This document shows positions 4,608-52,213 of a stretch of DNA of 64,000 bases, piece after piece. This stretch comes from Candidatus Magasanikiibacteriota bacterium. GTDB lineage: Bacteria; Patescibacteriota; Patescibacteriia; Magasanikbacterales; GWA2-37-8. The notes beneath the pieces are model-generated. The model ran no database searches. It saw only the letters and a program-made list of their open reading frames with translations, and was not told the DNA's origin. Each line of letters begins with the position of its first letter. The first letter of the stretch is position 1. Made by a program: the position numbers and the translations under genes. The DNA lies in the NCBI GenBank assembly GCA_016182085.1, contig JACOYB010000005.1, forward strand, positions 1,013 to 65,012, written 5' to 3'.

Positions 4608-5746
4608 ATATTTGTTCGTACTACCCCACTCAACAAGTCCTGCATTAGGCCTTTCTTGAGGAGAGTAAGTTTTTCTTTTAATTTTTTATTGACCAAAATC
4701 TTTTTATCAACTGCGGAAAGAATTTCTGCAATCTCTTTTATTTCAGAGGTTTTTTTTGGCTTCGGTATTGGTATCATAAAAAGTCGATCCTTATTTAACT
4801 TCGGTTGAGTCATCCCCGTTAGATACGGCCCCAGATTAAGCATATTCAAATAATCTTGGACATATTGTTGTAAAAATTTATCTTCAAATCTTTGAATATG
4901 TGCATGATTATTCACCCAATACTTACCAGTTGCAGTAAAAGCAATAGGATAATTTCTATCTTTAAGATTCGCGCCATCTTCCGAAATTAGTAATAACGTT
5001 TCTTCAAAAATATAATCACTAACATAATCAACGATGCCTGTTGCGCCGTAGTAGGGATATTGTCCAGTGCTTCTTTTTGATTTAGTTATCGGAATGCGTT
5101 TGTTATCCAAGTTTTTAGAAATATCTTCCAAGCTCAACACATCCCACTCTTCCGGAATCTGTCCGATTTTTGTCTCCTTAAATTTTGTATGCCCAATCCC
5201 GCGAGTAAAAAGCTGTTGCATCAATCCGCGCTTGAGCTTTTCTGTCGCCTCAATCACTTCCTGCGTTTTCGCAATATCCTCATCCACCGCTCCCAAAATT
5301 TCGGCAATTTTTTGTTGTTCAGGGAACGGCGGAACCAACACTTCCAAATTCTGATATTGCGATATGTAGAATCGTTTATGACTTCCAGTAGGAAAATTAA
5401 CAGATTTCATTTTTGCATAAAAAAATCGCAAATCCACATCAGATCTTTTTTCTTTCAAAATTTTAATAGCTGATGACTTTATTTTAAACGGAAAATCAAC
5501 AAACTTACTATCAGTTGTAAAATCATCAAAGATGATTACTGGAAGATTTTTATAAACCCCAAAATCTTCATCCGTATAACCCAATACAAAAGACTTATTT
5601 GCCGTAAGTACGGGGGTCTTTGCTTTGTCGCTATAACTTGTACTTTTAACGATATAATTATCGGGACGCTCATAACCCAAAATATCGCTCAATTTTTTAA
5701 GCGACCACCCTTTTGGAATATTTTGTTGTGTGATGTTAGTTTTCAT
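4604..5746 (-). CDS. hsdS: Type I restriction-modification specificity subunit (HsdS)
   Basis: The protein is 380 aa with two target-recognition-domain halves and conserved central and C-terminal coiled regions (LKRGLMQQL / LKKGLMQDLL repeats). Confidence 0.8.
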   Translation of the reverse strand: MKTNITQQNIPKGWSLKKLSDILGYERPDNYIVKSTSYSDKAKTPVLTANKSFVLGYTDEDFGVYKNLPVIIFDDFTTDSKFVDFPFKIKSSAIKILKEKRSDVDLRFFYAKMKSVNFPTGSHKRFYISQYQNLEVLVPPFPEQQKIAEILGAVDEDIAKTQEVIEATEKLKRGLMQQLFTRGIGHTKFKETKIGQIPEEWDVLSLEDISKNLDNKRIPITKSKRSTGQYPYYGATGIVDYVSDYIFEETLLLISEDGANLKDRNYPIAFTATGKYWVNNHAHIQRFEDKFLQQYVQDYLNMLNLGPYLTGMTQPKLNKDRLFMIPIPKPKKTSEIKEIAEILSAVDKKILVNKKLKEKLTLLKKGLMQDLLSGVVRTNI

Positions 5747-10206: not shown

Positions 10207-11694
10207 ATGGCCAAATACTTTTTGTACGCTCGCAAGTCTAGCGAATCGGAAGAGCGTCAGGTTATGTCGATTGACGCTCAAATCGACGAGTTAAAAGAAT
10301 TTGCCGTCAAAGAAAAACTTGAAATCGTCGCCTCGCTTTGCGAGGCAAAAACTGCCAAACAACCTGGCCGAACTTTGTTCGGCGAAATGTTATCGCGAAT
10401 TGATGCCGGCGAGGCCGACGGCATTTTGGCTTGGCACCCCGACCGCCTAGCCCGCAACAGCGTGGATGGCGGTCGGATAATATATATGTTGGACACTGGT
10501 AAAATAAATTCCCTCAAATTTCCAACGTTTTGGTTTGACAACACACCGCAAGGAAAGTTTATGCTTAATATTTCTTTCGGCCAAAGCAAATATTATGTAG
10601 ATAATCTAAGTGAAAATGTGAAACGTGGAATAAGGCAAAAACTCCGCAAAGGAATTTGGCCGGGGAAAGCTCCGTTTGGATATAATAATGACCTGCGCCA
10701 TCACACCATACTCCCCGACCCCGAAAAGCATAAACTTGTAAAAAGGATTTTTGAATTATATGCGACCGGCGAATATACTTTTGAACAACTAATACAAAAA
10801 TTTGATATTCGTACTAAGACGAACAAAATAATGATGCCGGGCGACATGCAACATATTCTCAAAAATCCTTTTTACAGCGGCGTGTTTCGTTTCAACAACG
10901 AACTCCACCAGGGTACGCATAAACCGATAATAACAAAGAAACTTTTTGACGATGCCCAAGCGGTAATGGCAGCCAGAGGAAAACGCCGCAAGAAAAGCAG
11001 TCATGGATATATTTTTACCGACCTAATGAGTTGCGGGAATTGTGGCCGAGCCATTACCGCCGAAAAGCAAAAAGGTCATGTTTATTATCGCTGTACAAAG
11101 AAACGAACTAACTGCGATGAAAAATATATCCGCGAGGAAGAACTGCTAAGCCAGTTTAGAGACACATTACAAAAAGTTTCTTTGTCAGACGACTGGACCA
11201 AAAATTTGCTTGCTAAACTGGACGAGGAGCAAGCATCCGCAATCCAGTCGTCTAGCGTCCTTGTTCAGGCCGTAGAAGGACAAATAATGCCCATTAAGAC
11301 TAAGATGGACAAACTCCTTGATTCCCATTTAGACGGCATTATTGATAAACAAGATTACGTAAACAAAAAAGAAAAACTCCTAAATGAAAAACTTGATCTG
11401 GAAGCCAAAATTAAAGAAGTGAGGAACAAGGGCAACGATTGGCTCGAACCGATGAGGGAATTTATTTTAGACAGTTGCCAAGCCAAAAAAATCGCCGCGA
11501 ACGGCGATTCTCTTCAAATTCGAACATTTCTTAAAAAAATAGGCTCGAACTTTACGGTGAAAGGCAAAAAATTTGATTGGTTAGCGAAAAGGGGCTGGAA
11601 AATTATGCCCGATTTTGGCCGGTTTCCGACTGTGCAGGCCCGCTCGGATTCGAACCGAGAACCTCGGTTTTGGAGACCGATGTTTTACCATTGA
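10207..11694 (+). CDS. Large serine recombinase (resolvase catalytic domain, recombinase domain and zinc ribbon)
   Basis: The N-terminal YARKSS..SIDAQ contains the catalytic Ser region. Cys-rich CGNCG...YYRC and coiled-coil segments are present. The protein is 495 aa. The 3' end overlaps tRNA-Trp on the opposite strand, so the true stop may lie earlier. Confidence 0.85.
   Translation: MAKYFLYARKSSESEERQVMSIDAQIDELKEFAVKEKLEIVASLCEAKTAKQPGRTLFGEMLSRIDAGEADGILAWHPDRLARNSVDGGRIIYMLDTGKINSLKFPTFWFDNTPQGKFMLNISFGQSKYYVDNLSENVKRGIRQKLRKGIWPGKAPFGYNNDLRHHTILPDPEKHKLVKRIFELYATGEYTFEQLIQKFDIRTKTNKIMMPGDMQHILKNPFYSGVFRFNNELHQGTHKPIITKKLFDDAQAVMAARGKRRKKSSHGYIFTDLMSCGNCGRAITAEKQKGHVYYRCTKKRTNCDEKYIREEELLSQFRDTLQKVSLSDDWTKNLLAKLDEEQASAIQSSSVLVQAVEGQIMPIKTKMDKLLDSHLDGIIDKQDYVNKKEKLLNEKLDLEAKIKEVRNKGNDWLEPMREFILDSCQAKKIAANGDSLQIRTFLKKIGSNFTVKGKKFDWLAKRGWKIMPDFGRFPTVQARSDSNREPRFWRPMFYH
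11573..11634 (+). repeat. Copy C of the island repeat. It is the intact recombinase 3' end, abutting the tRNA-Trp 3' terminus.
   Basis: The 62 nt are ~80% identical to 950-1011 (direct orientation). Similarity stops exactly at the tRNA-Trp discriminator base. Confidence 0.7.
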
Positions 11695-11706
11695 AACTAC
11701 AGGCCT
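11635..11706 (-). tRNA. tRNA-Trp (anticodon CCA)
   Basis: The sequence folds as a cloverleaf: acceptor AGGCCTG/CGGGCCT, anticodon loop CTCCAAA, T-loop TTCGAAT. It closely resembles E. coli tRNA-Trp. Confidence 0.85.
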
Positions 11707-11716
11707 AAGGAACAAA

Positions 11717-11755
11717 CCCCGCCCGAAAATTATCAGAGCGGGGTTTATTTTTTTA
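11717..11755. terminator. Hairpin terminator (CCCCGC..GCGGGG followed by a T-run) between tRNA-Trp/recombinase and rpmG
   Basis: A 6-bp GC stem is followed by TTTATTTTTTT on the plus strand. A weaker T-run follows on the minus strand. Confidence 0.5.
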
Positions 11756-11908
11756 CTTGGTCTCTTTATGAGTGGTGTGCTTCTTGCAAAACTTGCAGAA
11801 CTTTTCCAACTCCAAACGATTCTTCAAAACTTTTTTATTTTTGTTTGGAAAATAGTTCATACGTTTGCATTCCGTACACTCCATTTTCACCCTATTATCT
11901 TGGGACAT
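11753..11908 (-). CDS. rpmG: Ribosomal protein L33 (absent from the ORF track because it is shorter than 60 aa)
   Basis: Translation gives [51 protein letters not shown]. This is the classic L33 signature (ECTECK...LEL.K.C..C.KHT.HKETK). Confidence 0.85.
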
Positions 11909-11947
11909 ATTTTTAAATAAATTATTAATTTTTTAAAACTCGACTCG

Positions 11948-12020
11948 AGCCGTTGTCGGGAATTGAACCCGAGACCTTTTCCTTACCATGGAAATGCTCT
12001 ACCATCTGAGCTACAACGGC
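11948..12020 (-). tRNA. tRNA-Thr (anticodon GGT)
   Basis: Cloverleaf: acceptor GCCGTTG/CAACGGC, anticodon stem TTTCC/GGAAA, loop ATGGTAA. Confidence 0.8.
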
Positions 12021-12091
12021 ATTGATAGTTATAAAGTTAAAAGTTATAAAGTCCAACCAAACTTTCAACTTACGCCGCTCGCGCGGCGTTG

Positions 12092-12173
12092 TGGGTGGAG
12101 TAGGATTCGAACCTACGAAGGCGGAGCCAACAGATTTACAGTCTGCTCCCTTTGACCGCTCGGGAATCCACCC
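12092..12173 (-). tRNA. tRNA-Tyr (anticodon GTA, long variable arm)
   Basis: GGGTGGATTCCCGAGCGGTCAAAGGGAGCAGACTGTAAATCTG...GGTTCGAATCC closely resembles E. coli tRNA-Tyr. Confidence 0.85.
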
Positions 12174-12194
12174 ATTTGACTTTAATTTAAAGTC

Positions 12195-12270
12195 TGGAGC
12201 CGTCTCGGGGGCTCGAACCCCGGACCCACAGTTTACAAAACTGTTGCTCTACCAGCTGAGCTAAGACGGC
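12195..12270 (-). tRNA. tRNA-Thr (anticodon TGT), with CCA encoded
   Basis: GCCGTCTTAGCTCAGCTGGTAGAGCAACAGTTTTGTAAACTGTGGGTCCGGGGTTCGAGCCCCCGAGACGGCTCCA. Confidence 0.85.
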
Positions 12271-30191: not shown

Positions 30192-31199
30192 TTATTTTGT
30201 CGCTAGTATGCTGCGTTTATAGTTTTCTAAATTGTCTAGAGCAATACCGGTGCCTTTGGCCACACAAAGCAATGGCTCTTCGGCCACATAGGTAGCCACG
30301 CCCGTTGCTTGAGCGATAAGTTCGTTTAAATTTCGCAGCATGGCCGAACCGCCGGATAAAATTATGCCTTTGTCTATTACATCTGCCGAAAGTTCAGGCG
30401 GGGTTTTGTACAAAACTGCTTTTACCGCCTCAGTTAAATTACCCAACTCATGCTGCAAGGCTTCGGTCGTATCATCGGAACTTACCATAATAGTTTTTGG
30501 CAAACCGGTAATCATATCGCGGCCTTTTACTTCCATAGTCAGAGGTTTTTCCATATACATGGCCGAACCAACTTTAATTTTTATATCTTCGGCTGACCGC
30601 TCGCCGATCGCCAAATTATATTTATGGCGAACATATTCCATGATAGCTTGGTCAAATTTATTGCCGCCCACGCGAGCCGAACCCCAAGAAACTATTCCGC
30701 CCAGAGAAATCACGGCAATTTCGGCTGTGCCGCCGCCAATATCTATAATCATATGTCCCGAAGCCGCGCCAATCGGAATATCAGCGCCAATTGCGGCCAC
30801 CACCGGTTCTTTAATGATATATGCCGCGCGCGCGCCGGCAGCGATGGTGGCGTCAATTACAGCTCGGCGTTCGGTGGAAGTAATGCCAGCCGGCACGGCC
30901 ACCATAACTTCCGGACGAAACAAACGCACACCGCCTAAAGCTTTATTTATAAAATACCTAAGCATGGCTTCGGTGGTATGGTAGTTGGCAATCACGCCAT
31001 CTTTAAGCGGGCGTTCGGCCAAGATCGCGTCCGGAGCGCGCCCAATCATATCTTTAGCCTCAACTCCTACGGCGAGCACTTTGCCATCGGCTTTAGATAC
31101 GGCCACAACACTGGGTTCATTAATAACAATTCCTTTTTTTGGAACATATACAAGCACGTTAGTCGTACCCAGATCAATGCCGATTTTTTTGATAAACAT
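30192..31199 (-). CDS. mreB: Rod-shape determining actin homolog MreB
   Basis: The N-terminal GIDLGTTNVLVY and the actin fold match MreB. The protein is 335 aa. Confidence 0.9.
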   Translation of the reverse strand: MFIKKIGIDLGTTNVLVYVPKKGIVINEPSVVAVSKADGKVLAVGVEAKDMIGRAPDAILAERPLKDGVIANYHTTEAMLRYFINKALGGVRLFRPEVMVAVPAGITSTERRAVIDATIAAGARAAYIIKEPVVAAIGADIPIGAASGHMIIDIGGGTAEIAVISLGGIVSWGSARVGGNKFDQAIMEYVRHKYNLAIGERSAEDIKIKVGSAMYMEKPLTMEVKGRDMITGLPKTIMVSSDDTTEALQHELGNLTEAVKAVLYKTPPELSADVIDKGIILSGGSAMLRNLNELIAQATGVATYVAEEPLLCVAKGTGIALDNLENYKRSILATK

Positions 31200-42009: not shown

Positions 42010-42084
<75 letters not shown>

Positions 42085-42086
42085 AA

Positions 42087-42674
42087 TTATCTAAAACTTA
42101 TTTCTACCTCTCTATTTCCCGCGATAAGTTTTACCAATCTCTCAATTTCTTTTTTGGTATTTTCTTTGGCTTCATTTTGAACCACATCGCTTTTGGCCGC
42201 AGCCAGGGCCGCCTCTTTTAATTTAGCATAAGCGGCATTATAGCCATCATCGTTATTAAAAATCTTTTTGAAGATCCCTTGTTTGTTTTGGAGGGTGATA
42301 TCGCCGATTAGCTCTACTCCGTGATCCTCAAGGGATGGCAAGCTAGCCGTAACGGTGCGAGCATCAACCGTAATATCTTCAGGTGAAATTTTGTTTAGAT
42401 CTACCCCCAAACTCGCTTTCATCGTACCCATAGCCACGATATCTTGACCCCAAAAAAAGTCTTTAAACGCGCTGCCCGTGGAGCGGTCTATGGTAATCTG
42501 CTGGGTAATAATATATGTTTCGGTAACCAAAAATCCTTCATGCTTTAACGCTTGCACGATAGATTGTGAACTTACCTGCTCACCCGGTTGATTTGGTTTG
42601 CCAAGACGGTAGCCGACAAAAAGACTTGCAGCTACGATTACTAAGACACCGATAGTTATTAATTTGTTTTTCAT
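42087..42674 (-). CDS. Membrane-anchored hypothetical protein (N-terminal TM)
   Basis: The protein is 195 aa with a single N-terminal helix. Confidence 0.4.
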   Translation of the reverse strand: MKNKLITIGVLVIVAASLFVGYRLGKPNQPGEQVSSQSIVQALKHEGFLVTETYIITQQITIDRSTGSAFKDFFWGQDIVAMGTMKASLGVDLNKISPEDITVDARTVTASLPSLEDHGVELIGDITLQNKQGIFKKIFNNDDGYNAAYAKLKEAALAAAKSDVVQNEAKENTKKEIERLVKLIAGNREVEISFR

Positions 42675-42938
42675 ACAACTTAGTTTAGTTCATCCGGATG
42701 AACCATCTTGCTTCGCATAAATAAAGAAACCGTAATCATTATTAATATTATCTAAAATTGATATTTAATGTAACACAGACCATTATCTTTGCCAAGTTAT
42801 TTTATAAAAACAAAAAACCGCCTGCTCACTAGTTTCCACATCGGTGAAAAATAATGAGCATAGCGGCGGTCTTGTGTTGACCTCCGCCATGCTTACTCCC
42901 AAAGAGTCAAGCGAAGCGAAGGTCTGATTGCGACCGGT

Positions 42939-43383
42939 TCAGTTTGCGGTAGCCTGCTGGTACCGGACCGCAGACGGACGACGACGGCCTGAAGAAAACA
43001 GCATCGTCTTCACCACAGGTGGAGTCGGAGGCTGAGCCACCAGCTCGGGCATCGTGAACGAGCAACGCATCAGAATGACCCAGACCGGATCAGGCTTCAC
43101 CCCTCCCTGCAACTTCAGGGCCGCGGCGGTAGCATGACGATCTGTCACCACCTCGCCTGTCGTGGCAGTGACGAGCTGCACGTCGCGCATCACCCTCATC
43201 AAGAGGTAAGCGTGACGCTGCTGCTGAGCGCGAGAGTCAGCGCGATGATTGGGAATATCGCCGTAGCGCACCTTCCCAACATGGAACTGACGGGCGCCTT
43301 TCCCACCCTCTGAGTCACGTGACATCACGACGCAGACCACTTCTACGTCGTCCTGCGAACGCTTGGTTGACCGTTTCTTCATG
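42939..43383 (-). CDS. Hypothetical protein (148 aa) encoded in a high-GC foreign-looking island
   Basis: The ATG is preceded by a strong Shine-Dalgarno sequence (AAGGGGGGAA). GC3 is very high, unlike host genes. The ORF track gives a 214-aa extension that is probably read-through. Confidence 0.4.
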
Positions 43384-43407
43384 GTTCCCCCCTTGTGAAG
43401 ATTGGGC

Positions 43408-43596
43408 CTACCGACGACCCGAGCGGGAACCGCCCGGCATGGTTCCCCGACGACCATAGTCGCCCGGGGGACGGTTGTGGAAGGCATCCTTCTGACGCCG
43501 GATTCCAGCCTCGGTGTCATCGCCGGACGGATCATCCGTCTCGTTGCGCGCTTCCTCGATCGAGATGTTGGAAGAGTGACCATTCCATCGATTCAT
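43408..43596 (-). CDS. Small hypothetical protein (62 aa) in the high-GC island, upstream of the 148-aa gene
   Basis: A Shine-Dalgarno sequence (GAGGGG) sits 8 nt upstream. Its stop lies 24 nt before the next start. Confidence 0.3.
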   Translation of the reverse strand: MNRWNGHSSNISIEEARNETDDPSGDDTEAGIRRQKDAFHNRPPGDYGRRGTMPGGSRSGRR

Positions 43597-43880
43597 GTGG
43601 AGTTTCCCCTCAGCCTTAACCGGTGAAAATCAAGCAAAGAAATTCCAAATGGAATGCCTTAAGCGGCCTGCAAAACCGCACTCGCGACTCTGCACTTCCA
43701 TACTTGCACCGATCTGCGTACTGCATACCTGGATTTCAGATATAAAATACGCAGACCGGTAAAAAATTTAAAAATATTTTATCTGTAAAAGAGCTTGCAA
43801 CAGTATACGTTAAAAAACAAATTTTGTCAATAAAAATAAGAATCGCTCCTTCTACGGCCGAGCGACCCTCCTCACGAGCT

Positions 43881-49797: not shown

Positions 49798-50001
49798 ACC
49801 TTTATTTTAAAATTTGAAAAGTTAAGTTATTTTAGCAATTTTATACGTCCTTGTAAAGCAATAATTTAAAACAAAAACAGCCTTCGTTTGAAGACTGTTT
49901 TTGTGCTTGGCCCGAGAATTTCTTCTCAAGGCCAGTCTCTTGTTGGCGGCCTTTACGAGCCGCCGTCCGCCTTGTGGGCAGACTACCCCAGTCGGGGGCG
50001 G

Positions 50002-50463
50002 CTATTGAAACAGGTTCAGGTCACCGAGCTCCAGAACCCGGACCTGCGCGGGCTGCTGGCGGACGAGGTACGCGTCGTAGTTCACGACACGATTCTTATC
50101 CTTGGAGAAGAGGGTGACCAGATGCCACACCTCATTGCCGATCTGGATCGAGCCGTCATCGCTCACCACCACCGTAATACCCTTGTTCTTGGCGTTGGTG
50201 AGCGAGAAGCGGGGTCCATCCTGGCAGATGATGCCGGCGATCTTCTCGCTGGGCGTCACCGTCTCGCCCTTGGCGTTGACGTAGGTGAGGTTGGAGGGCG
50301 CGTCGAACGCGAGATCGGGTTCCGCCGTGATGATGGGCTGGCCGTACTGGCCCGGGCTCACCATGTAGAACTGGCGTTCGCCGTTCGGACCAAGGTTGGT
50401 GACGTTGTAGTCGCCCGTCGTTTCATCCACCTTGATAGTCCACTGCTTATTCATGACCTGCAT
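50002..50463 (-). CDS. Hypothetical beta-rich protein (153 aa) in a second high-GC island
   Basis: A Shine-Dalgarno sequence (GGAGCGGAG) precedes ATGCAGGTCATG. GC3 is very high. The antisense 202-aa ORF (49888..50496) is an Arg/Gly/Leu-rich GC artefact. Confidence 0.4.
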   Translation of the reverse strand: MQVMNKQWTIKVDETTGDYNVTNLGPNGERQFYMVSPGQYGQPIITAEPDLAFDAPSNLTYVNAKGETVTPSEKIAGIICQDGPRFSLTNAKNKGITVVVSDDGSIQIGNEVWHLVTLFSKDKNRVVNYDAYLVRQQPAQVRVLELGDLNLFQ

Positions 50464-50606
50464 TTTCTATCTCCGCTCCCAGGGCCTATTGCCTGAGATT
50501 GAAGTTGGGTGCTGGCAGTAAGTGCAGCACTCATACACCCGCCTGTGCAATTTACACACGCGCGATTAAGCTTTCTCAATCGCCCGAGTACAAAATACTT
50601 CAACTA

Positions 50607-50634
50607 TAAAACCCGTTACTAGAACGGGTTATAA
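50607..50634 (-). terminator. Hairpin terminator after the 50670..51566 gene
   Basis: AACCCGTTCTAGTAACGGGTTTT on the minus strand. Confidence 0.5.
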
Positions 50635-50669
50635 TAGCACAAAAATGACTTCCTGTCAATACCCCAAGA

Positions 50670-51566
50670 TTAACCTTTTTGTCTTAATTCACGTAAAAAT
50701 TCTTCTGCTTGCGCAGCTCCGCTCCAGTACCCTATACCATCCATAGCATTTCTTGCATCTTCAGCATAACGCTTGGCCATTTTTTTCTTTTTAAGGGCTA
50801 GGAAAGCTTTGGCAACATCTAAGTTAACCCTGCCTATGTTAAACGTATCTCCCAGCTCCTGGCGCTGACGTTGCAAGGCAAATAATTGTTGAATACCAGA
50901 TTCAATCTTATCCGGCTCAGCCTGAAGGGTCATTTTAGAAATTTGAGCTCCATATCTTAATTTACTGACCTGCCACCGCACATTTAAATCGCTGGCCTGC
51001 TCTTTTTTAAGTAAAAGGTCTAACCCTGCCTTATGCATGTCTTTAGACAGTTCAACCTCTCCTTGGCGCAAATAGATACATCCGAGCGTATTATACGCAT
51101 TAGCTTGGGAGACCGCATCAACCACGAAACTTTCAACTCTAGTTAGTAATTTTGCCAGCCGCTCAGACGCGCCATCTCTCTTTTCATGATATAGCGCGCC
51201 AGCTAGCTCTGCGGCTGCAAACGCAGATAATTTGGCAGACTGAAGCACACGTTCCAACTCCGCGACATCTGAAATATCGGTTATACTTTTACCGATTGAT
51301 TCTTGGACTATAGAATTTATTGACCGTTCAAGAAGGCCTAACCATTCTGTATCTTTGTCGCCCTTTCTAACAACAACGTTCTCAACAAATTTATTTCTAT
51401 CTAGCAATTCTCTTACAACATCTAGTTCATTTGCATTACAAGCCTCTTCTAAACTTCCTATACGCTCATTAAAACCTTTATCAAGGCCAAAAATTATATC
51501 GGGTGAATTTTTATCAACTTCTTTCTTTTCTATTTTTTCTTTCCAGCCGCTCTCCGACTCGGTCAT
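50670..51566 (-). CDS. Hypothetical helical (TPR-like) protein
   Basis: The protein is 298 aa and helical-repeat rich. Confidence 0.35.
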   Translation of the reverse strand: MTESESGWKEKIEKKEVDKNSPDIIFGLDKGFNERIGSLEEACNANELDVVRELLDRNKFVENVVVRKGDKDTEWLGLLERSINSIVQESIGKSITDISDVAELERVLQSAKLSAFAAAELAGALYHEKRDGASERLAKLLTRVESFVVDAVSQANAYNTLGCIYLRQGEVELSKDMHKAGLDLLLKKEQASDLNVRWQVSKLRYGAQISKMTLQAEPDKIESGIQQLFALQRQRQELGDTFNIGRVNLDVAKAFLALKKKKMAKRYAEDARNAMDGIGYWSGAAQAEEFLRELRQKG

Positions 51567-51589
51567 ACTGATGGATAATTTTATTTTAA

Positions 51590-52207
51590 CTATAATGCCA
51601 CCGGCTCAATTTTTTCCTTTAACCATTTCTTAAAATATTTTTCTACTGGTTCAAGCATGTTTTTTTCTTGCACGATCTTTTTAGCCTGGCGACTGCGTAA
51701 ATTATACAGAGTGTGATACCGCAAGCGAAGATCCACTTCTATTTTTCCCTCATCGCCTTCAAAAAAATCCAAGCTTCTTTTTAAACCCAGCTTGCCAAAA
51801 CCGTCCAGTTTATCGGCATCACGCAAAATCCAAGCTACAGCGTAATCATTTGCCATATCATTCCAGTGGTAGCGAAGCGCGTATAAAATTTGCAGTTTTT
51901 CTTCCTTTGACAGCGCATCAAATCTCTTGTCCTCCCTAAACCACTCCCGGCACATTTCATACGAAAGCTCGTGATGTCTTTTTTTATGACCAAAAAATTC
52001 TTCCCTGACTCTGCCAATATCATGAAGCCAGGCGGAAATTTCCGATAAAAATATATTGGCATGTTCGGCTGTAGCGATTAGCACCGCCCACTTGGCTACC
52101 CGCTTAGCATGATCAAAACCATGCGCTTTGGCCGGATACTGGTTCATCAATTCTTTTACTCTCACTCGAACATAGCTAACTAACTTTTTTTGTTCCTTGG
52201 TGTACAT
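51590..52207 (-). CDS. HD-domain phosphohydrolase
   Basis: HGFDHAKRV...WLHDIGR gives the H..HD..D pattern. Confidence 0.65.
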   Translation of the reverse strand: MYTKEQKKLVSYVRVRVKELMNQYPAKAHGFDHAKRVAKWAVLIATAEHANIFLSEISAWLHDIGRVREEFFGHKKRHHELSYEMCREWFREDKRFDALSKEEKLQILYALRYHWNDMANDYAVAWILRDADKLDGFGKLGLKRSLDFFEGDEGKIEVDLRLRYHTLYNLRSRQAKKIVQEKNMLEPVEKYFKKWLKEKIEPVAL

Positions 52208-52213
52208 AAACCA

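Follow-up and report, generated by a model that had tools for sequence, protein, structure and literature searches.

In a 64,000-nt stretch of contig JACOYB010000005.1 from a Candidatus Magasanikiibacteriota bacterium (assembly GCA_016182085.1; hereafter the window), we found a sharply bounded GC-rich island that probably represents a native, self-contained transcription unit, one of a small family within a subclade of Candidatus Magasanikbacteria; we put the probability of this reading at about 0.7. Read on the minus strand, the unit consists of a predicted promoter, a structured 5' leader, two open reading frames (ORFs; orf62 and orf148) with strong Shine-Dalgarno (SD) sequences, and an intrinsic terminator (Table 1). 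Its parts are each of an already familiar kind (a structured leader, an intrinsic terminator, a small orphan protein). What is new, as far as Rfam and the literature searched show, is their combination: RNA ends conserved in sequence enclose GC-rich, SD-dependent cores that are not homologous, and the units occur in several copies, sometimes in tandem, in a lineage of the candidate phyla radiation (CPR). No description of the element was found in literature searches.

Composition and borders of the island

In 200-nt sliding windows, GC content was 0.51-0.625 at about 42800-43700 and 0.32-0.45 on either side, climbing from 0.33-0.39 and returning to 0.37-0.42, and the top-scoring GC segment covered 42863-43558 (696 nt, 61.2% GC). 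The mean of 300-nt windows across the 64 kb was 0.41 with a standard deviation of 0.05, placing the island about 4 standard deviations out. An earlier note on this DNA had described a high-GC island with abrupt edges, and the uniform calculation at both window sizes confirmed the contrast (61% GC against a window mean of 41%). Every codon position of orf148 was GC-shifted (0.655/0.473/0.669 at first, second and third positions, compared with about 0.48/0.35/0.39 in host genes), and the base composition and codon usage of the island differed from those of the host, with a GC content at third codon positions (GC3) of 0.67 versus 0.40 in host genes. Elsewhere in the 64 kb, comparable GC was reached only at 49888-50500. 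A third, mild GC bump (30600-31050, 0.55) corresponded to the mreB gene (30192-31199) and was set aside as having no relation to the islands.

Translation signals also set the island apart. With host start codons taken as the first start of the longest ORF, an SD core within -20 to -4 of the start was present in 5/46 host genes, and 13% had a dG <= -6, so the contrast with SD-poor host genes drawn in the earlier note was borne out. Both minus-strand ORFs that it predicted were present behind strong SD sequences, although the space between them is 25 nt and not 24.

The abrupt switch of composition on both sides had raised the suspicion of an assembly chimera joining high-GC and low-GC DNA. However, a metagenome-assembled genome (MAG) from another study, locus L001, carries the same island and flanks with the same junctions, at 94.7% identity over 991 nt and with no indels, and related units with the same flanking genes occur in loci L007, L008, L081 and L136. 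Because independent assemblies carry the same island, the probability of a chimera is practically negligible.

Related units in other Magasanikbacteria loci

A total of 80 syntenic Magasanikbacteria loci were fetched via the NTP-transferase gene that flanks the island. A unit was present in or beside the same slot in L001, L007, L008, L081 and L136, that is, in every relative in which the DUF4230 gene is adjacent, and its distribution at this site was therefore not patchy. In L007 and L008, GC islands filled the same gap between the NTP-transferase and DUF4230 genes; their cores could not be aligned to the window, whereas the promoter region and the 3' hairpin were conserved. L136 is a close sister of L008 and otherwise about 95% identical to it.

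A covariance model of the leader identified a second, tandem unit in L007 (L007u2), and none further in the window or the other 76 loci. Scanning metagenomes with the pattern of the 3' hairpin gave 46 loci, of which L094 and L099 were real and the rest chance matches; L094 has two tandem units (L094A and L094B), and L099 has one unit among unrelated genes. Altogether about 11 full or partial copies were recognised (window, L001, L081, L007u1, L007u2, L008, L136, L094A, L094B and L099), the complete ones being 542-991 nt long. A single ORF was found per unit in L008, L007u1, L007u2, L094B and L099. Two scans of viral contigs gave no true match to the unit, and blastn against phages and plasmids gave none. 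No Rfam 15 family reached its gathering score in the island, and at E <= 10 only chance hairpin-type matches appeared.

Promoter, leader RNA and terminator

The sigma-70-type promoter of the window has close counterparts in the family, as TTGACA and TATAMT separated by a 17-nt spacer were found at the equivalent place in the units of L001, L007 (two units), L008, L094B and L099. Downstream of the -10 box, most units share GCA(A)G(G)TTCTTT, from which L008 and L007u2 deviate slightly (GTAGTTCTTT in L007u2). Pairing of this conserved initial transcribed sequence with the SD region or with any fixed downstream site was inconsistent across units. The distance from the -10 box to the ATG of the first ORF was 205, 205, 201, 208, 206 and 181 nt in six units, so that SD and ATG directly follow the leader at a nearly constant distance, which is the arrangement of a cis-acting structured 5' leader.

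The long hairpin P1 showed the compensatory changes that such a leader should have. In alignment A5 (6 units), 94% of cells were paired and 14/25 pairs had changed on both sides; 0/500 shuffles reached the observed values, and slid controls were 33-46% paired. Such changes are also visible by eye, for example CCGGTCTGCGTA/TACGCAGATCGG in the window and TAATTTGCATA/TATGCAAATTA in L007. The layout of P1 and the following P2 domain was predicted alike when each unit was folded separately, and covariation support for P2 was partial. The covariance model of P1 and P2 gave 138 bits in the window and 101-110 bits in the other training units, scores that are circular because these units trained the model; on L007u2, which lay outside the training set, it gave 31 bits. 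Relative to dinucleotide shuffles, the whole leader (43795-43597) had a fold z of -7.5 when read as sense and -2.9 as antisense. The predicted folds of the units showed no consistent occlusion of the SD.

At the other end, the terminator stem (42870-42817) is directly followed by TTTTTTGTTTTT, as in an intrinsic terminator, and the 3' region 42938-42810 had a fold z of -6.4 against dinucleotide shuffles. The hairpin covaried in alignment A9 of 10 unit ends: 96% of cells were paired, 11/24 pairs had changed on both sides, 0/500 shuffles reached the observed values and slid controls were 39-60% paired. Its pattern occurs once in the window and once at each unit end in the related loci. Owing to the length of its stem and an internal loop there, the hairpin escaped a simple terminator scanner. 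The hairpin region upstream of it in the 3' untranslated region (UTR) was partly conserved in L001, L007 and L081. These results uphold the stem-loop and T-run terminator proposed in the earlier note, and with it the description of promoter, SD-led ORFs and terminator as a stand-alone minus-strand transcription unit.

A further motif was seen upstream of promoters. RGGGGATAAGT stands directly upstream of the -35 box in three promoters (L094 reverse, ~330-345 and ~975-990; L099 reverse, ~4610-4625), including one of an ordinary downstream gene; it could serve as an UP-like element or as the binding site of a factor.

Coding genes of the unit

Since a GC-rich island with a promoter and a terminator in an AT-rich genome could be a structured RNA, both a coding and an RNA reading were tested. 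For orf148, comparison with L001 gave a ratio of nonsynonymous to synonymous divergence (dN/dS) of 0.27 at a dS of 0.16, with the frame open and no indels, whereas a stop was introduced in 57% of neutral simulations. The neighbouring NTP-transferase gene had an omega of 0.10 at a similar dS (0.18). A word-indexed search and an exhaustive HMMER search of 1.84 billion representative proteins returned between them one true homolog of orf148, P0002 (36% identity; E = 5.5e-7 for the entire library), which is encoded on the short contig L081 upstream of the same DUF4230 gene as in the window. The likeness of the two was confined to the orf148 frame, and nucleotide identity by codon position was 0.53/0.59/0.44. 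On the strength of the dN/dS, the frame-specific homology and the codon-position pattern, these comparisons indicate that orf148 is a genuine protein-coding gene with an orphan product. Two marginal matches, P0003 and P0004, are long repetitive proteins and were disregarded.

The status of orf62 as a protein-coding gene is uncertain. Its frame is preserved in L001, where only 6 changes (3 synonymous, 3 nonsynonymous) underlie an omega of 0.32, and the second codon position has the lowest GC in its frame; it had no homolog, and the N-terminal motif of the ORFs of other units was absent from it.

We weighed against these data an RNAIII-like reading, in which the transcript would be mainly a large structured or dual-function RNA whose conserved 5' and 3' domains act as RNA and whose ORFs are incidental or secondary. 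A GC-rich island in an AT-rich genome is often the mark of a structured RNA. Here the leader and 3' end are strongly folded, covarying and far better conserved than the cores, and the predicted fold of the minus strand is more favourable than that of the plus strand by 65 kcal/mol; moreover, some unit ORFs look disordered, and that of L094B is without codon periodicity. Yet the ORF bodies fold no better than shuffles, with a z of -0.65 for orf62 and -0.99 for orf148, like the host control genes (-1.3 and -1.8), which rules out the whole core as a structured RNA, and no Rfam family was matched. The purifying selection and frame-specific homology of orf148 likewise speak for translation, as does the placement of SD and ATG at a fixed distance from the promoter in every unit. 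The L008 and L136 ORFs differ by indels of 3, 3 and 9 nt, all multiples of three, which supports coding in the L008 unit. An RNA with incidental ORFs is thus distinctly unlikely, although the ends may have a regulatory role as RNA alongside the coding function.

As the earlier note had stated, neither protein resembles a known family, and orf148 gave no match in Pfam, PADLOC, PHROGs or PDB sequences. Its product is basic (isoelectric point, pI, 10.5), Arg-rich and soluble; going by this composition, nucleic-acid binding would be the likeliest guess at its role. The first-position ORFs of the units are all basic (pI 8.1-10.9), Arg-rich and soluble as well. By inspection, without statistics, the unit ORFs have in common an N-terminal hydrophobic strand followed by a Gly/Asp turn, and a C-terminal [A/V]-Asn-stop is present in the window, L001, L081, L008 and L007u2, with the Ala codon varying among GCA, GCT and GCG. 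With the L008 ORF as query, only its near-identical sister was found among 5.8 billion protein clusters. Likeness of the L007 and L008 ORFs to orf148 was not significant in tblastn, and MAFFT alignments of them were unreliable.

It had also been proposed that orf62 and orf148 form a toxin-antitoxin, addiction or anti-defence module, which would suit two small, fast-evolving orphan genes lying side by side. Five of the units (L008, L007u1, L007u2, L094B and L099) have a single ORF, however, and orf62 has no counterpart in them; there was no Pfam, PADLOC, PHROGs or PDB-sequence match, and no defence genes are adjacent. Because the pair is not conserved and matches no family, the proposal is unsupported, and we regard such a module as very improbable indeed. 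The orphan protein by itself may still act in anti-defence or in something similar.

Conserved ends and variable cores

The GC-rich cores between the conserved ends were mostly unalignable across units. In blastn comparisons of non-sister units, the 3' hairpin aligned over about 65 nt at 74-89% identity, and a 47-nt stretch of P1 was 96% identical between L094B and L099. L094A and L099 agree at 89% of their final 112 nt, within the 3' UTR, whereas their ORFs could not be aligned. A short coding stretch was alignable by blastn between the window and L081.

Signs of recombination were found at the unit ends. About 10 paired differences between the sisters L008 and L136 fall in the apical half of the 3' hairpin, and the L136 version is like the family consensus. 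Directly past the 3' edge of the unit (window 42564-42763), the identity of the window to L001 is 57%, down from about 95%, and the DUF4230 gene that follows (42087-42674) has a dS of 0.67, versus 0.16-0.18 for orf148 and the NTP-transferase gene, which suggests a recombination breakpoint at the unit edge. The burst of changes in the L008/L136 hairpin and the identity break therefore point to recombination or gene conversion acting on unit ends. Judged from these alignments, such events appear to keep the conserved ends similar among copies, while the cores diverge or are replaced.

A system of exchangeable cassettes, in which the hairpin ends are recombination or mobility sites (integron-like or IS200/IS605-like) and the GC-rich cores are swapped cargo, would account for unrelated cores within conserved ends, for copies at different loci and in tandem, for the shared 3' UTR of L094A and L099, for the apparent replacement of the hairpin between L008 and L136 and for the identity break. 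Nevertheless, no integrase or transposase lay beside any copy examined, every unit carries a promoter of its own, and a U-run comes after the 3' hairpin as in an ordinary terminator. P1 and the 3' hairpin are dissimilar, and no R''/R' core site GTTRRRY was found at the base of the 3' hairpin. Homologous recombination between paralogous ends would explain the data without a dedicated mechanism, and we consider a mobile cassette system unlikely.

Persistence of the high GC content

The earlier note had read the composition as acquisition from a high-GC donor such as an actinobacterial host or its phage. The GC shift at all codon positions, codon and SD usage unlike those of host genes, orphan proteins and the identity break beside the unit in the closest relative are what recent horizontal transfer of a two-gene module might leave. 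However, no donor homolog was found in 1.84 billion representative proteins, 5.8 billion clusters, or phage, plasmid or viral-contig DNA, and the only protein matches were orf148 itself and P0002, the latter on a syntenic contig. In all relatives with NTP-transferase/DUF4230 synteny a unit fills this slot, and the promoter, leader and terminator of the unit are AT-rich, lineage-specific and common to copies at other loci. No integrase ORF, no bordering tRNA and no flanking direct repeats of at least 12 nt were found at the island borders.

Composition itself also argued against a recent arrival. GC3 was 0.54-0.83 in the unit ORFs versus 0.31-0.40 in long genes of their hosts, and the window and L081 homologs are both still GC-rich although near saturation (44% identity at third positions). 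Furthermore, a second GC-rich gene about 6 kb from the island, orf153, is vertically inherited, and its family keeps a GC3 of 0.72-0.88 in low-GC hosts, the homologs in syntenic loci having 0.73-0.88 against a host GC3 of 0.26-0.36. Because GC3 stays high through deep divergence, and does so in the orf153 family too, composition is not diagnostic of recent transfer here. The high GC can be a long-standing, stable property of certain genes in the lineage rather than a mark of recent transfer, as far as sequence comparison tells. With no donor, a conserved slot, native ends and a stable composition, recent acquisition is unsupported and very unlikely. High expression as a source of high GC3 was ruled out within the window, where the gene for ribosomal protein L27 has a GC3 of 0.36 and that for MreB 0.45.

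The second GC-rich gene, orf153 (50002-50463, minus strand; within 49888-50660), stands alone, with a GC3 of 0.85, its own promoter, a strong SD and a terminator. Its 66 homologs come from metagenomic contigs and from MAGs that carry the label Magasanikbacteria or Peregrinibacteria; all are annotated as hypothetical and have no Pfam domains. Its AlphaFold 2 model is all-beta and very confident, with a predicted local distance difference test score (pLDDT) of 95.7 and a predicted TM-score of 0.88. Foldseek matched the model to nothing in PDB or BFVD (best TM about 0.2), and the product may thus be an orphan fold. At 860-876, L001 lacks a 2.4-kb segment of the window (about 49800-52210) that carries orf153 and genes of 298 and 205 aa, and there a 281-aa NAD-epimerase-like gene directly abuts a PGI-like gene. 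The scarcity of SD cores among host genes fits reports of many Parcubacteria without anti-SD (PMC9297842), and the few strongly SD-led genes of the window are the GC-rich stand-alone ones; the anti-SD motif was detected in only 48% of Parcubacteria 16S rRNAs (PMC9297842).

Table 1 Features of the GC-rich transcription unit (positions in the window).
Feature	Position	Strand	Basis or description
Sigma-70-type promoter, TTGACA-17 nt-TATACT	43802..43830	-	11/12 consensus positions matched
Conserved initial transcribed sequence, GCAAGCTCTTT	43788..43798	-	After -10 box
P1, ~25-bp long hairpin of 5' leader	43708..43760	-	Inverted repeat I1, predicted fold and covariation
P2 leader domain	43631..43707	-	Closing helix around P2a (GCAGAGUCGC/GCGGUUUUGC), GGCC-type hairpin P2b, UUCCA/UGGAA hairpin
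SD of orf62, GAGGGG	43606..43611	-	Predicted anti-SD duplex, dG -7.7 kcal/mol
orf62, 62 aa, hydrophilic, probably disordered	43408..43596	-	First ORF after leader, ATG 205 nt past -10 box
SD of orf148, AAGGGGGGAA	43385..43394	-	Predicted anti-SD duplex, dG -10.8 kcal/mol
orf148, 147 aa plus stop	42939..43382	-	Identical to annotated protein HYT15_02505
3' UTR with predicted upstream hairpin, CCUUCGC...GCGGAGG	42875..42938	-	Whole-transcript fold
Intrinsic terminator, 24-bp hairpin GACCGCC...AUGCUCAUUAUUUUUCAC / GUGGAAACUAGUGAGCAG...GGCGGUU, then U-run	42803..42872	-	Family signature

The tRNA genes of the window were also located. A single tRNA-Pro(GGG) (42010-42084) adjoins the DUF4230 gene, which stands between it and the island, and a cluster of tRNA-Trp, -Thr, -Tyr and -Thr lies at 11634-12270 on the minus strand.

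Proposed working of the unit

The near-consensus sigma-70 promoter (43830-43802) would start a minus-strand transcript of about 990 nt, from about 43795 to about 42805. Its first ~205 nt would fold into the conserved leader, with the 25-bp P1 followed by the multi-hairpin P2. Translation would then begin from strong SD sites, in a genome mostly without them, first at the doubtful short orf62 and then at the fast-evolving orf148. The transcript would end in two hairpins, the last of which, the conserved 24-bp stem with its U-run, would act as intrinsic terminator. We infer that the long end hairpins may stabilise the mRNA, serve as RNase III-type processing or protein-binding sites that control translation, or both. 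The strong SD may compensate for the GC-rich, structured context, because such a context would rule out the unstructured-leader initiation presumably used by host genes. The unit ends may be homogenised by recombination among copies.

Several points weigh against the reading of the island as a native unit of a small family, or narrow it. The cause of the high GC is one of them, as no link to expression level was seen in the window (the L27 gene noted above). The ~11 copies come from about 8 contigs and, being few and including several close pairs, give the covariation counts few independent lineages to draw on. P2 is less well supported than P1. SD function is deduced here from sequence, the MAG's own 16S gene lying outside the window, and the ends, stability and processing of the transcript are predictions of the same kind. 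Comparative support for orf62 is limited to L001, the likeness between ORFs of different units (N-terminal strand and turn, C-terminal A/V-N) was seen by inspection only, and the L094B ORF shows no codon-position GC signal. The AlphaFold 2 model of orf148, built from a 2-sequence alignment, had a pLDDT of 37 and was not usable.

More speculatively, the units could be portable expression cassettes, with ends kept uniform by gene conversion and GC-rich, SD-dependent cores that are exchanged or turned over fast. High GC and strong SD would then make up a distinct expression regime in an AT-rich, SD-poor CPR genome, common to stand-alone GC-rich genes such as the orf153 family. We hold this proposal to be doubtful and offer it tentatively; if true, the regime would yield very stable mRNAs that are translated only when an anti-SD is available, and if cores are truly exchanged between conserved ends, the family would be a new kind of modular gene family.

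CPR/Patescibacteria genomes are rich in orphan genes, and RNA-level regulation in them is almost undescribed. The present unit contributes two covariation-supported RNA elements absent from Rfam, the 5' leader and the conserved terminator hairpin. It also offers a clear case in which a sharp GC island is no sign of horizontal transfer, a high GC3 having long been stable in a low-GC genome. A strongly SD-led gene set in a mostly SD-less lineage would make the choice of start sites by CPR ribosomes directly testable.

Comparison with known systems

The unit is like a transferred genomic island in its sharp GC contrast, its orphan genes and its unusual use of codons and SD sequences. It differs in its conserved position among relatives, its native regulatory ends, the lack of mobility genes and donors, and a composition that is stable through deep divergence. 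Integron cassettes with attC sites are alike in having variable ORFs that each end in a conserved imperfect inverted repeat, and in their tandem copies, but the units have their own promoter and leader, their hairpin is followed by a U-run, and there is no integrase among the neighbouring ORFs.

Staphylococcus RNAIII is a dual-function RNA with structured 5' and 3' domains and an embedded small ORF. The unit is similar to it as a transcript of about 0.5-1 kb with conserved structured ends, a variable centre and an embedded small ORF, whereas in the unit the ORF fills most of the transcript and is under purifying selection. The cspA-family cold-shock mRNAs, paralogous small-protein genes with a long, conserved, structured 5' UTR in common, resemble the units in placing small proteins behind such a leader. 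The unit proteins are not cold-shock domains (no Pfam match), however, and the cores are GC-rich and unrelated between copies.

mRNAs with protective end structures include those with 5' stabiliser stem-loops (ompA, ermC and aprE leaders), RNase III-processed T7 and lambda mRNAs, and those ending in intrinsic terminators. Like these, the unit surrounds a small gene with a strong promoter, a long 5' UTR hairpin, a strong ribosome-binding site and a stable 3' hairpin with a U-run. It differs from them in that it is known from sequence alone, that P1 begins some 40 nt inside the predicted 5' end rather than at the terminus itself, and that its hairpins are conserved in sequence across unrelated coding cores.

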